The position numbers and the translations under genes are program-made. A stretch of DNA of 64,000 nt from Eledone cirrhosa. Lineage: Eukaryota. Of this stretch, positions 4,726 through 56,600 are shown piece by piece; the first letter of the stretch is position 1, and each line of letters starts with the position of its first letter. The notes beneath the pieces were generated by a model. It saw nothing but the letters and a program-made list of their open reading frames with translations, was not told where the DNA came from and did no database searches. The stretch is from NCBI GenBank assembly GCA_964016885.1, contig OZ024746.1, positions 39,928,001 to 39,992,000 of the forward strand, given 5' to 3'.

Positions 4726-5264
4726 TATAAATGAAATAACAGGAGGCTGGACTGGTGTAAATCCTTGAAAGGTTTATTATACTATGATCATTTCAATGAC
4801 CGGGTTCCATATGAATCCGGTGATATCATCAGGTATTGGAATATAACAAAGGAATATGTAAATAGCCATGGGTCCGAAAAACCATGGGTCCGAGAAACCA
4901 GACACAGAGAGGGCGGCTGACCAACTAGCTTCACAGCCAGCCGCCCTCTGGTTTCTCGGACCCATGGTTTTTCGGACCCATGGCTTTTTACATATTCCTT
5001 TGTTATATTCCAATACCTGATGATATCACCGGATTCATATGGAACCCGGTCATTGAAATGATCATAGTATAATAAACCTTTCAAGGATTTACACCAGTTC
5101 AGCCTCCTGTTATTTCATTTATAATTAACTCCGTATTCGCACCACCAACTACACAAACGAAGATGGGTGAACTGCACTGCGTTGAGTACTCTTCACAATA
5201 TTACACCAGGATTGACCATACGGAATGACCAGTTCTATCCAGTGGTGAACCAACAAACCTTAAG
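4726..5264. mobile_element. PLE-type inverted terminal-repeat insert with 3' tail, between (AT)n tracts
   Basis: Near-perfect inverted arms ~4726-4918 and ~4940-5123, unique extension 5124-5264, one HHR in each arm. Confidence 0.75.
5013..5070 (+). ncRNA. minimal type I hammerhead ribozyme (mirror copy at 4779-4836, minus)
   Basis: atac-CTGATGA-t-atcaccgg..ccggtcat-t-GAAA-tgatca(palindromic)-TA-gtat; stem I atac/gtat; followed by aataaa. Confidence 0.75.
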
Positions 5265-5367
5265 ATATATATATATATATATATATATATATATATATAT
5301 ATATATATATATATATATATATATATATATATATATATATATATATATATATATATATATATATATA

Positions 5368-6943
5368 GAAGTTCTATTTAAATTGTTGGGATACAACAAG
5401 CAAATATTTTTATAACTGATATAAAGCACTCAACTAATTGGAGTAAAAATACGATATTAACAAATGGAAACTATATTTATAAAACCATATTTATTTCATT
5501 ATACATATTTCAAAGACACCAAGTTAAATTATGGTGTGCTTTCATCAGATAAAATATAATATAGAGCAGTTTTATAAATAAATATTGACATACCCTTAAA
5601 GAATGCAACCATTATATTATATATATTATGTACCATTATATATATATTATGTACTTCAATTATACTATGTACTGTATTTATATATCTCTCTCTATATATA
5701 TGTATGTGTGTATATATATATATATATATATGTGTATATACTTATGTGTGTGTATGTATGTATATGTATGTATATGTGTGATGCATATCTACCTATATGT
5801 GTAGATACGTCTATGTGTATATATGTGGGGATTGTGTACATATATATATATACATACAATTCGATTGCACTAGTTTATAAGGATTTTCTTAAGGTTCGTG
5901 ATAAACAAACCTATATAATAACAGTCACAACTACATAACAGGTGGATTTATTAGATATAAAACTTATATAACAAAGTATGTATAACCTAAAATTTCCTTT
6001 AATATCTTAACATTTGTAACATTTATATAATTAAATAACGTATTTTCCTTCACGCTGTTTTGAAATTACATAGAAAGGATTTTCTCTGTTTTTTCTAAAA
6101 TTTTCTCAGAAAAATCTATAAGTTTATGAAAATTCCTATATCTTAAATTAAAAAATCCTTTATGTGTATATATATGTAGGTGTATGTGTATATATGTTTA
6201 TGTATATATATTTATATGTATATATATATATGTGTGTGCGTATGTATATATATGAATATATTCTTTTAATAATATATAGTTTTTTAATAATATATAATCT
6301 TAATAATATATAGATTTCTTAATAATATATAGATCTCAATTTTTAATGTATAGATCTCAATATTGTAAATGATAAACTAAACATTTAATCATATTTAAAC
6401 AATGGTTAAACATCTATTATGTATGTATTTTCCATTCAAGCTTATTTACATTTCTCTATTCATCCATTAATATTTATTCTTTCACTTCATCTCAAATGTT
6501 AAGATAACTCAACAACCTATCACTTAGAGCTTTCGCTTTCTCTTTCCTTTTCCTCTCTCTCTCTCTCTCTCTCTCTCTTCTTATTTTCTTCTTAAAGGTT
6601 TTCTCTTTCTTCTCTTTTTTATATCTCTCTCTTTTTTCTCTCTCTTGTTCCTCTCTCTCTTTCTTTCTCCGTAACCCAACGGCTTATTTAAATCTACTCT
6701 CATTTAAAAATATCCAATAATAATTTACATAATAGTATAAATAAATTTATAACCTCACTATCCGGGAGCTTCCAACAGTAATGGTTGCATTCTTTAAGGG
6801 TATGTCAATATTTATTTATAAAACTGCTCTATATTATATTTTATCTGATGAAAGCACGCCATAATTTAACTTGGTGTCCTTGAAATATGTATAATGAAAT
6901 AAATATGGTTTTATAAATATAGTTTCCATTTGTTAATATCGTG
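5368..6943. mobile_element. non-autonomous PLE-type insert: inverted ~163-bp HHR-bearing repeats around a 1.2-kb low-complexity core, tail on the left
   Basis: 5451-5613 is the reverse complement of 6780-6942; both ends abut (AT)n; extra segment 5368-5450. Confidence 0.7.
6837..6901 (+). ncRNA. minimal type I hammerhead ribozyme (mirror at 5492-5556, minus)
   Basis: tattttat-CTGATGA-aagcacgcca..tggtgtcctt-GAAA-tatgta-TA-atgaaata; 8-bp stem I with one GU. Confidence 0.75.
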
Positions 6944-7030
6944 TATATATATATATATATATATATATATATAATTAAAACGATAGAAGGTCGAACTGGA
7001 AATATCCCTTTAAAGATTTAAAGTTGCAAA

Positions 7031-53514: not shown

Positions 53515-53572
53515 TTAGGAATGACGTAGGACAGAAGAAAGGAAAGGCACAGAAACAAAGAAAGGAATCCCC

Positions 53573-53617
53573 AGTCACTGAAGAGGTCACAGAGTGTGTG
53601 ACGAAAGGACTATGACT
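53573..53617 (+). ncRNA. minimal type I hammerhead ribozyme in the PLE terminal repeat (mirror at 52546-52590, minus)
   Basis: agtca-CTGAAGA-g-gtcaca..tgtgac-GAAA-ggac-TA-tgact. Confidence 0.8.
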
Positions 53618-56600
53618 ATATATAAACAACTATCTGGTTGTGGAACCAACCAACCAGAAATTTATAAATTTGTAGATTTGTAAATTTATAAATTTATAAA
53701 TATATAATAAATTGAAGTGAAAGCAACTGGTGCGTGTGTTTCTTATTGGCAACATGACCCTCCCAAAGTATAACAATATCGGTTTCAACACACGATTTCA
53801 GATAAAGAATCTTCCTAAACAAATTCAGAAACGATATATATATATATATATATATATATATATATATATATATATATATATATATATATATATATATATA
53901 TATATATATATATATATATATATATATATATATATATATATATATATATATATATATATATATATATATATATATATATATATATATATATATATATACC
54001 AATGCATTGGAAGTTAGACAGAAGCATAGATAATCACATGCATGCACACACAAAGCATATAAGTTTACCTTGGTGAATTGGCAGTATCGGTAGAGTGTCG
54101 GACGCCATGCTTTGCAGCATAGTTACGTCCCTTTACGATCTGAGTTCAAATCCCGCCGAGGTTAACTTTGCCTTTCATCCTTACGGGGGCGATAAAATAA
54201 ACTACCAGTAATACACTGGGTAATTGCTGGCCTTGTGCCAAATGTAGAAACACTTATATATTAAATTATCCTAAAAATGTGTGTGTATCCTTAATGTAAA
54301 GAAGGAAGGATGTGTATATATATATATATAGAGAGAGAGAGAGAGAGAGAGAGAGAGACAGACAGACAGAGAGAGAGAGGTGGGATAAGCGAGAGTAAAA
54401 TTACTGTTATGCCTGAATACATATGCATGTTAGCTAATAAATCATTAGATAATATAGCTAATATAACCAGTTCATTAACATAAGTATATATATGCGTGTG
54501 TGTGTGTGGGTGTGTATTTATATATAAACATATATATACACATATATATATACACACATATATATACATACATATCTTTATACATACATATACTCATCTC
54601 CATTCATTTCCACTATTAACATAAGACCATCAGTTTGAAGGTAGCGGTGTAGCCGAGTTAATAGACTCCAGTAGAGGACACGCCATCATTTTCTCTAGAA
54701 TGATGAACGACAAAATTGATCTCAGTAGGTTTTGTAGTAACTAAATACACCAATTCAGATTCTGCCACCACCACCCCTCCCAACTCCACCAACACCAACA
54801 GCAACGGCACTACCATCACGACCACACCACCATTAACTGTTGCTATCACTATCGCACCACCACACCACCCTTAGCTGAGCCAATATTAAAAACAACTGAG
54901 CCAAATTAGTTAATTCTCACTGGAATGGAGTTTTGCCAAAACCGACATTTATATCTGCGGGTGTCATTCGTAACGAAAAAAAGAACATCATATCTAGTTT
55001 ATAAATATATAGAAATATATAGCAATCATACATTATATCATACTACATGTATTAAAGTGCATACATCAAAATAAATATGCAGTAAAGAAAAAACAAAATC
55101 TATGTGACAACTTCATTAGTATGCTTGATTGGACATACATAAAAATCTTAAAGATTGACAGTAAAAAAAAAAAACCTGAAGAAAATTTACTACTATTGGC
55201 AACATGTTGATTGAATTCATAAACAGAAAATTAAAACCGAATGAAACTTAAAATTAATCTCATTCGTCTTTGGTTACTAAATTACATACATTCTCTAAGA
55301 CAGAAGCTAATAAATCGTAGATTATATATGTAAATGATAGACCACCAAGGAGTTTATGACGGAACGCCGTTTTTTTTTGGGGGGGGGGGATAAAGGGAAT
55401 AGTATTAGGTTGTTCAGAAATTTATGCAGGTTTTTAAACATTTATTTTAAAACGACATATCTCAGTCCAGATTAAACTTTATTGATTGAAATAAAAACCA
55501 TTAGAATCTACTTATTTTTGTTAACAAGATACAAGTTTATTTATTCCGGTAATATAGATAGTTAATTTACACAGTGCTCCTGTTGCTTAGAATTGTGAAT
55601 ATATTTACACATTCTACCTAAGTATCGCTAGATTGACTGAGCCCACCAATAGAAACAATCTTGGTCATAGTTTGAACGTAGCCCATTCGACCAGCAATCA
55701 ACATCCATCAACTTAACTAGCTGTGTCACTCTAAGAGGAATTCGGTGCCAAATGTTGATAAGCAACTGAATAGTAAAGTCCACTGCATTTCGAAATAAAC
55801 CTATATGCCACGATTTCGATTTCTTATTGAAATCCTTTTCATTTTCTTACGCTATAAATATTCTTTAGAAAGGTATATATCACTACTCTCATCCCTAAAG
55901 TTTTGGGGTTCTTTCTTACCCAGAGAAGGTCAGAGGAAATCATTCTTGAGCGTCATCATTTTGTACACTCCTTCAAATAAAGTTTGGAAACATATAATTA
56001 TAATCGATATAAAGAGCAAAATGTTGAAATGTTAATAAATGACGTTTGTTTATGCAGAGGATGTATCATATACTCCATCTTTAATATTCGGGTAACATAC
56101 ATATATTTTTTTCAAAAAATTATGAATGATGGCATATTACTATAGAAGACGTAAACTATATATATATATATATATATCAATATATAATTAAAACTTCAAT
56201 CTTCTCTTGGGCATGAACAGCGAAGAATATCATTTTTTTTTTTTTTTTGGCTGATAGTGACAGTGTTTGATTACTATTTGGCTAAAACTTTGAAAGTGGC
56301 GATATTATATTTCTGGGGAGATTTCATCGTCTTGGGGGTATAGTCGATTAAAGTTAAAATATCTTAGTATTTCTTTTTGTATTTTTTAATACTAAACCAA
56401 TACTTATAAGGGAGAGGAACAGAGTTGTGATGTTCATGCTTTTCTCTGCAAGAATTAACGAGATAATCAAAATTATAAAAAAAGAAATTTTTTAAATGCG
56501 TGGCCTTAGATCACCTTAAATTTCGTGACGTGTGTCAAAAAGACAAATAAAACATTGCAGTTGTAGAATGAATAAAATATGAATTGCTATGTAAATAGTG

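Follow-up and report, generated by a model that had tools for sequence, protein, structure and literature searches.

How do short, sequence-distinct palindromes come to share one anatomy, with inverted arms, a hammerhead ribozyme (HHR) motif and a tail on one side only? This question is raised by 64,000 nucleotides of contig OZ024746.1 from the 3.0-Gb assembly of Eledone cirrhosa, the stretch of DNA that we analyzed as a whole and refer to as the window (37% GC, with (AT)n abundant throughout). The original prediction attributed eleven such inserts to a large and diverse population of Penelope-like elements (PLEs) that is targeted to (AT)n and primes internally by TA microhomology; for PLEs, the origin of the inverted pseudo-long terminal repeats (pLTRs) and of the one-sided tails has itself been named an open question (PMC8557442). 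The reading that we favor, at a probability of roughly 0.6, is that the inserts are 5'-truncated, head-to-head PLE insertions in (AT)n, each with a long and a short end at positions fixed for the family, and that they arise when both target strands are nicked and prime at two preset internal sites of the RNA.

Self-comparison sorts the eleven inserts into nine families (A, B, D, E, F, G, H, I and K), in agreement with the estimate of about nine, and related groups exist among them (F/H/I and B/D). Genome searches returned 202 to 1,494 candidates per family, first-look figures that are lower bounds. Loci from the rest of the same genome, labeled L followed by a number, were chosen as the best matches to the window arms, except that the copies of family E were mined from the flanks of loci already retrieved and not by a full-arm query. 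The resulting census, with the window copies included, comprises 427 distinct arms from 229 loci and eight families; a later set of 75 additional loci brings the total to 304.

Nearly all arms (422 of 427) end at one of two family-fixed sites: 241 at the short site, 181 at the long site, and five in between. The fixed end passes directly into AT repeat in 387 of the 427, and several of the long ends without AT are read-throughs into a tandem body. Among 124 head-to-head pairs, 118 combine a long with a short end, three are short and short, two are short and intermediate, and one is long and long (binomial P 4e-28 against 50%). A count with terminal probes over all 304 loci gave long-short combinations for 212 of 218 partnered ends. 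Short-read contigs from two other studies carry (AT)n loose ends at positions 4696 and 4756 of L143, the two sites of family K, and the ends are hence no assembly artifact. Our literature search, which covered titles and the starts of abstracts outside subscription papers and bioRxiv supplements, returned no report of a long-and-short pairing rule.

These data lend themselves to the following model. A protein of the element would nick both target strands within (AT)n, and each nicked strand would take one of two preset internal start sites. Both starts probably lie either on one RNA, where the cDNA begun upstream would be displaced by the downstream reverse transcriptase (RT), or on a tandem transcript; they are probably set by binding of the protein to local RNA structure, the TA bases serving only to anneal the primer. 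The two cDNAs would then stop early or run off the 5' end of the RNA, which would account for family-typical arm lengths, and host end-joining would link them head to head with overlaps of 0-7 nt or short inserts. Cleavage by the HHR would not be required by such two-site priming. A biochemical precedent is the Poseidon protein PAc, described as cleaving and extending both strands in vitro, with two internal starts that bracket the tail, and as predicted to be dimeric (Frangieh et al. 2024, PMC11167929).

The arms themselves speak to this model in several ways. Of the 118 long-and-short pairs, 108 entered the junction analysis (ten were dropped for exceeding 2.6 kb or for an internal AT repeat), and 105 were resolved. 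The two arms truncate independently: 43 pairs have the long arm extending further upstream and 46 the short arm, and in 16 both go equally far. At the junctions, an overlap of at least 1 nt is found in 57, a blunt joint in 11 and an insert in 37, some of these inserts repeating neighboring sequence. Because 106 distinct geometries occur among the 108 pairs, the palindrome is made anew at each insertion and not copied as a unit. Furthermore, in 21 of 122 pairs the long arm ends without having reached the short site, the non-overlapping geometry of twin priming. Arm lengths cluster at 5' hot spots, which take in 37 of 40 arms within 49-63 nt in family E, 19 of 28 in F, 13 of 18 in D, 14 of 24 in G, 14 of 34 in B and 9 of 18 in I. 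It is a reasonable inference that run-off at the transcription start may explain these family-typical lengths.

Whether one RNA or two serve the paired arms bears on the first alternative, in which two RNAs in a dimeric ribonucleoprotein, each subunit confined to one start site, yield the two arms. This proposal accounts for the long-and-short rule and for overlapping arms without strand displacement; it fits the predicted dimer of PAc, and some long arms extend over 1 kb into the open reading frame (ORF). It nonetheless has to face the divergence between arms, which is smaller within pairs than between pairs in seven of eight families, by a wide margin in the polymorphic ones (0.018 against 0.092 for B, 0.023 against 0.079 for E and 0.066 against 0.143 for I), so that both RNAs would need to come from one source locus. 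Arm concordance thus leans toward one RNA, and we regard the two-RNA scheme as unlikely.

A little less probable still is a fold-back origin, as in the model for rotifer Penelope elements, in which the target-primed cDNA snaps back and is copied, or an antisense RNA primes itself. Head-to-head palindromes are read as self-priming in PMC3846280, variants common to both arms exist, and 61 of the 105 resolved pairs are symmetric within 20 nt. A simple snap-back, however, needs the first-primed arm to reach further upstream in every case, against the near-even split of 43 and 46, and the tail-only, non-overlapping long arms cannot come from copying the other arm.

The third alternative, that TA microhomology alone places internal priming at any TA-rich patch of the RNA, follows most directly from the original prediction, which was correct in the TA-rich spots that it quoted for the ends of the shorter arms. 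All eight families tested show an overlap of 3-7 nt between the short end and (TA)n; it sums to 38, against a mean of 8 in 20,000 random draws, all of which fell short of that sum. The ends of family D are scattered across successive TAT patches. Even so, the pLTRs of families K, F and G contain longer pure TA runs (7-10 nt) located 34-159 nt upstream, at which none of 225 copies ends, and long ends overlap by about 1-4 nt only, where their continuation is known. The microhomology is real at the short ends, but the TA does not choose the site; the site is therefore preset, and the TA only lets the primer anneal. We consider placement by TA alone very improbable. A bulged-hairpin pattern lies 5-14 nt behind five of 13 ends (the short ends of B, D and E and the long ends of A and G) and behind none of those of K, F and I; it was derived from these same sequences, so that its background rate of 0.2% overstates its significance.

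There is next to no probability in the remaining proposal, in which the inserts are miniature inverted-repeat transposable elements (MITEs) or fold-back DNA transposons that a transposase moves as units, or else artifacts of assembly: they are short, near-symmetric palindromes of family-typical size whose target duplications would be unreadable inside (AT)n, yet their ends are asymmetric, their center junctions nearly unique and their 5' truncations variable and reaching into RT/GIY-YIG ORFs, and the short-read contigs with both K ends argue against an artifact. We rejected identity with MITEs or terminal inverted repeat (TIR) DNA transposons on the grounds that termini are not symmetric and copies not of unit length; no transposase partner was seen either, although no search aimed at transposases was made.

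Several observations weigh against the two-site reading that we prefer. The later 75 loci gave 13 long-and-short combinations among 18 new pairs (P 0.10), so that the pairing rule is not absolute; family H is the least regular, with two of five pairs short and short, and 221 of 445 ends have no partner end of the same family within 1.4 kb. Family G shows no difference between within-pair and between-pair divergence, and the similarity of the arms elsewhere could stem from gene conversion or sibling transcripts. The hot spots are in part an effect of ascertainment, as full-arm queries bias families D, F, G and B, with E free of this bias. Only E, F and I have a TATA-like box 28-32 nt upstream of the hot spot; that of B lies at 21 nt, D and G have none, and K and A were inspected by eye. 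The promoter of Drosophila Penelope is described as internal and TATA-less (PMC2377424). From two RNA runs, at shares of 0.05-0.07, no contig matched the K junction, a result neutral as to expression. Finally, PAc is reported to start without homology to the target, whereas the short ends here overlap (TA)n (PMC11167929).

A more general proposition is accordingly only tentative, and we put it somewhat below even odds: in PLEs of at least two clades, twin priming on a single RNA would be obligatory for insertion, with a dimeric RT-endonuclease giving one strand the downstream and the other the upstream structure-marked site, such that complete insertions carry one long and one short end. Thousands of MITE-like mini-palindromes would then be run-offs from these sites that end where transcription begins in the pLTR, and the same route would serve retrozyme arrays and families without coding sequence.

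Each of the eleven inserts was found at its predicted position: 4726 (A), 5368 (B), 7158 and 52381 (K), 9887 and 25501 (D), 10418 (E), 24857 (F), 28811 (G), 41291 (H) and 41683 (I). The two K copies are 87-89% identical and the two D copies 82%. Their description as palindromes suits eight, which have arms of at least 50 nt (in that at 5368, 1.16 kb lies between the arms); it does not suit those at 7158, where the opposite arm is a 38-nt tail only, 25501 (inverted overlap about 15 nt) and 41291 (about 20 nt). The (AT)n setting is general, save that the left side of 25501 abuts (GT)n/(GA)n. One-sided tails had been put at about 35-140 nt, and the measured distance from short to long anchor is 37-145 nt. 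The arms, together with three features beyond the original eleven inserts, are as follows.

4730-4901, minus strand: family A short-end arm, HHR 4777-4838
4948-5264, plus strand: family A long-end arm, HHR 5011-5072, tail about 145 nt
5367-5614, minus strand: family B long-end arm, HHR 5494-5554, tail 84 nt
6400-6943, plus strand: family B short-end arm with an upstream piece of 3'-untranslated region (5' limit approximate), HHR 6839-6899, Hydra-type
7159-7401, minus strand: family K older copy, short-end arm, HHR core at 7349
7411-7450, plus strand: family K older copy, tail-only long-end arm without overlap with the short arm, twin-priming geometry
9890-10057, minus strand: family D short-end arm, HHR 9929-9995
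10058-10316, plus strand: family D long-end arm, HHR 10120-10186, tail 96 nt, Hydra-type
10420-10473, minus strand: family E short-end arm, only the 3' half of the HHR
10478-10610, plus strand: family E long-end arm, 3' half of the HHR, tail 80 nt, Hydra-type
15059-20245, both strands: head-to-head array of near-identical 310-bp units (beyond the eleven), ten HHRs on the minus and seven on the plus strand, inversion near 18169
24857-25060, minus strand: family F long-end arm, U3-A8 HHR core at 25025, tail 63 nt, Neptune-type
25064-25209, plus strand: family F short-end arm, U3-A8 HHR core at 25104
25501-25583, minus strand: family D older copy, nearly tail-only long arm
25598-25767, plus strand: family D older copy, short-end arm, mutated HHR core at 25670
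25786-25943, strand not given: family G older copy, tail piece and short-end arm (beyond the eleven)
28811-29112, minus strand: family G long-end arm, HHR core at 29114 with a stem II region of 85 nt, tail 145 nt, Hydra-type (RWK remnant, DKT, CxCX5C)
29118-29268, plus strand: family G short-end arm, beginning just past the first half of the core
41292-41657, plus strand: family H long-end arm with an inverted short end of about 20 nt at its left, U3-A8 HHR core at 41498, tail 37 nt, weak Neptune link
41684-41800, minus strand: family I short-end arm with an internal deletion, weak U3-A8/GCAA HHR at 41773
41806-42028, plus strand: family I long-end arm, tail 40 nt, Neptune-type (L227)
44522-44733, minus strand: family I solo long-end arm (beyond the eleven)
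52383-53519, minus strand: family K short-end arm and a broken C-terminal part of the ORF including GIY-YIG, HHR core 52585
53520-53833, plus strand: family K long-end arm (pLTR and tail), HHR core 53578, 58-nt tail corresponding to the ORF start

The HHR motifs are far more frequent than chance would allow. A strict type I descriptor matched seven times outside the 310-bp array (six times in the listed inserts and once at 30651) and 17 times within it; in a check set beforehand, the seven matches stand against 0.14+/-0.35 for block shuffles and 0.18 for Markov sequences, with 100 of each. Two further descriptors, relaxed and tuned only once the sequences had been inspected, gave eight and nine matches in the inserts against 0.01-0.02 in 300 shuffles and bring in families K, G, F, H and I, no one descriptor catching all inserts. 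With the three descriptors taken together, all nine families have an HHR in the pLTR of at least one copy (weak in I), its self-cleavage being predicted. Every HHR found points outward, as had been claimed. A complete motif is present in nine of the eleven inserts, not in each of them: the insert at 10418 retains the 3' half only, longer E copies having the full motif with a U3-A8 core, and the core of that at 25501 is mutated. The HHR of 41683 is weak, with a GCAA core and a 3-bp stem I, and the complete motif of 28811 is confined to one arm. The term minimal HHR does not apply throughout: stem II regions extend to 54 nt in E and 85 nt in G, and the core is of the U3-A8 type in E, F, H and I. 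None of the 150 Rfam matches listed, out of 192, is a hammerhead, which is uninformative for minimal HHRs, and folding-energy z-scores of -0.3 to -1.8 for seven motifs lend no support in either direction. Two further observations concern these motifs. A lone type I HHR lies outside the listed inserts at 30651-30701 on the plus strand. In family E (L216:6135-6240), the arm-length hot spot and a TATA-like word fall inside HHR stem II, so that an RNA starting there would carry only half a ribozyme.

A further check set beforehand was to link each family to an element with RT and GIY-YIG endonuclease (EN) domains. Same-strand coding DNA for RT and/or GIY-YIG was found for seven of the nine families: four of Hydra type (G, D, B and E), two of Neptune type (I and F), and one, K, with an unusual RT. 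These links, together with the many arms that end into AT repeat, back the predicted PLE origin, family diversity and (AT)n targeting. RT and EN are both present for K (in one open frame), G, D and I; for B, E and F, the EN lies at a fixed spacing. Family G forms a tandem element of 3.18 kb that contains DKT, a remnant of RWK, a CxCX5C linker and CxxC/CxH (L144, L151). Family D leads to Hydra-type ORFs in L219-L221, family B to such ORFs in L069/L222 (with an intervening insert) and, for an 83% subfamily, in L224, and family E to one on the same strand and at the same spacing in six of 25 loci. The Hydra diagnostics were read from L144, L151, L153, L219, L220, L224 and L256, with RWK and DKT seen for G only. 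Neptune-type ORFs accompany family F in ten of 25 loci and family I in L227, with a CX4CxxC linker, CCHH and a C-terminal EN (L227, L283). Family H has same-strand Neptune-type matches in two of 25 loci at unequal spacings, a weak link. Family A, tandem at 1.9-2.1 kb, contains no ORF above 96 aa in either of its units (L216, L218) and gave no match to a PLE protein; by its structure, it is a predicted non-autonomous PLE. Pfam recognized RVT_1 on I (E 2e-7) and GIY-YIG on G below the cut-off; it found no domain on the K or D proteins, and the PLE assignment is based on motifs. The best named match of one element is an Octopus vulgaris protein (69% identity). L220 and L221 of family D hold insertions of 4.2-4.4 kb that are joined head to head through the endonuclease region, with a long end on one side and a short end on the other.

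Family K merits separate treatment. Between tandem pLTRs in L143 lies an open RT and GIY-YIG frame of 1167 aa (L143:1103-4603, minus strand), with an asparagine-rich N-terminal part and, at the C-terminus, a GIY-YIG of Neptune-like type, and the tandem period is about 4.07 kb (L141, L143). Motifs A and B of its RT are separated by 131 aa, compared with 61-62 in I, D and G, and approximately 50 of 57 homologs (P0001-P0057) are alike in this respect. Despite its Neptune-like EN, K thus departs from the canonical RT without a fingers insertion that defines Neptune. Fingers insertions of about 20-40 aa are tied to clades with an N-terminal EN and, sporadically, to Coprina (Craig 2021, PMC8557442), and within the titles and abstract starts covered by our literature search (subscription papers and bioRxiv supplements apart) no C-terminal-EN PLE with a long fingers insertion was found. 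Family K possibly represents an unnamed PLE lineage. In the window, a 152-aa fragment resembling its RT thumb lies at 26063-26521 on the plus strand, with no pLTR beside it.

The 310-bp array ends about 35 nt apart within the unit, is flanked by (AT)n on both sides, carries one canonical-core HHR per unit and has a 99% copy in L055. It is retrozyme-like, with the same end grammar as the PLE inserts. With non-LTR retrozymes, as treated in PMC7229834 and bioRxiv 10.64898/2026.07.22.740005, it shares the unit size of about 300 nt, the tandem layout and a type I HHR in each unit; it differs in being a head-to-head double whose long and short ends are of PLE type and lie in (AT)n, and the text of PMC7229834 never uses the word "inverted". 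Its end grammar is in line with the PLE origin of retrozymes considered in bioRxiv 10.64898/2026.07.22.740005.

Elsewhere in the window, short islands between microsatellites (14488-14637, 21530-21625, 25268-25400, 37876-38051 and 51254-51488) are probably further PLE ends, and 37815-38051 matches 51254-51488 at 80%. A dispersed repeat family of about 200 nt (11467-11900, 37437-37677, 54071-54262, 56694-56900 and 62995-63155) is one that we take to be like short interspersed nuclear elements. The GC-richer segments 1-3800 and 30900-32000, both on the minus strand, resemble coding sequence of long interspersed nuclear elements of L1/Tx1 type, and the adjoining locus L228 has RT-bearing frames. 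Positions 58000-62000 form a long low-complexity tract with extreme strand skew (GC skew near 1).

Collectively, our counts turn the origin of the inverted pLTRs into three testable questions, namely which site serves which strand, whether one or two RNAs are used, and whether structure or TA homology sets the start, and an in vitro PLE system is already available (PMC11167929). As the inserts look like MITEs and, with the array, cover about 17% of the window, the findings bear on how repeats are annotated in cephalopod-like genomes; Penelope as well as MITE and unclassified TIR families appear in an Octopus annotation of 2026 (PMC13282606).

Measured against known systems, the inserts have the layout on which the prediction was premised and which Craig 2021 and Cervera 2014 describe, namely an inverted pLTR with an HHR, a tail on one side only, and (TA)n as the target. 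The hallmarks of endonuclease-bearing PLEs, as given in the Figure 2 legend of PMC8557442, in Arkhipova et al. 2013 (PMC3846280) and in Schostak et al. 2008 (PMC2377424), are likewise present: pLTR-ORF-pLTR masters in tandem with the RT/GIY-YIG ORF on the sense strand of the pLTR, a head-to-head, 5'-truncated copy with a single-sided tail, and an HHR in the pLTR, with A lacking an ORF and H weakly linked. In Adineta Pen2a, the tail is the ORF start, as in family K. Our families differ by tails of 37-145 nt against the 30-40 bp described and by the prevalence of pLTR-only mini-palindromes; in the consulted parts of these three papers, we found no count of long-and-short pairing to set beside the 118 of 124 reported here. 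With the minimal HHRs of PLEs (Cervera and de la Pena 2014, PMC4209133), the motifs share type I topology, a tiny palindromic helix III, the covariant U3-A8 core known from Schistosoma PLEs, and opposite-strand pairs, there 100-700 bp apart and ascribed to truncated PLEs; those were described for Schistosoma and others without mapping of the ends, and ours are known from sequence alone.

With respect to clades, the names Hydra and Neptune are assigned by motifs and not from an RT tree, and Nematis shares the Neptune motifs seen in I and F. The Hydra clade (section 11 of PMC8557442, with Hydra-1_Obim as an entry in its supplement) shares with G, D, B and E a C-terminal GIY-YIG without CCHH, the CxCX5C linker, CxxC and CxH near the end, and (TA)n targets, and with G also DKT and the RWK remnant. 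To be set beside that clade are non-coding 3' regions of about 1.0-1.3 kb in B, D and E, a very long stem II in G and E, and the U3-A8 core in E. The Neptune clade, defined by a CX2-5CxxC linker and CCHH (PMC8557442), shares with I and F the CX4CxxC form, two cysteines inside GIY-YIG and (TA)n flanks, and with I a DKG motif; the U3-A8 cores of I and F set them apart. Poseidon PAc has in common with the inserts the two internal RT start sites around the tail, the use of both strands and an AT-rich target, although the main text of PMC11167929 assigns no rule of one site per strand. Taken together, the anatomy is that of a textbook PLE; what is new are the families, set beside published ones by motifs, the longer tails, the counts, and the refutation of purely TA-guided priming.

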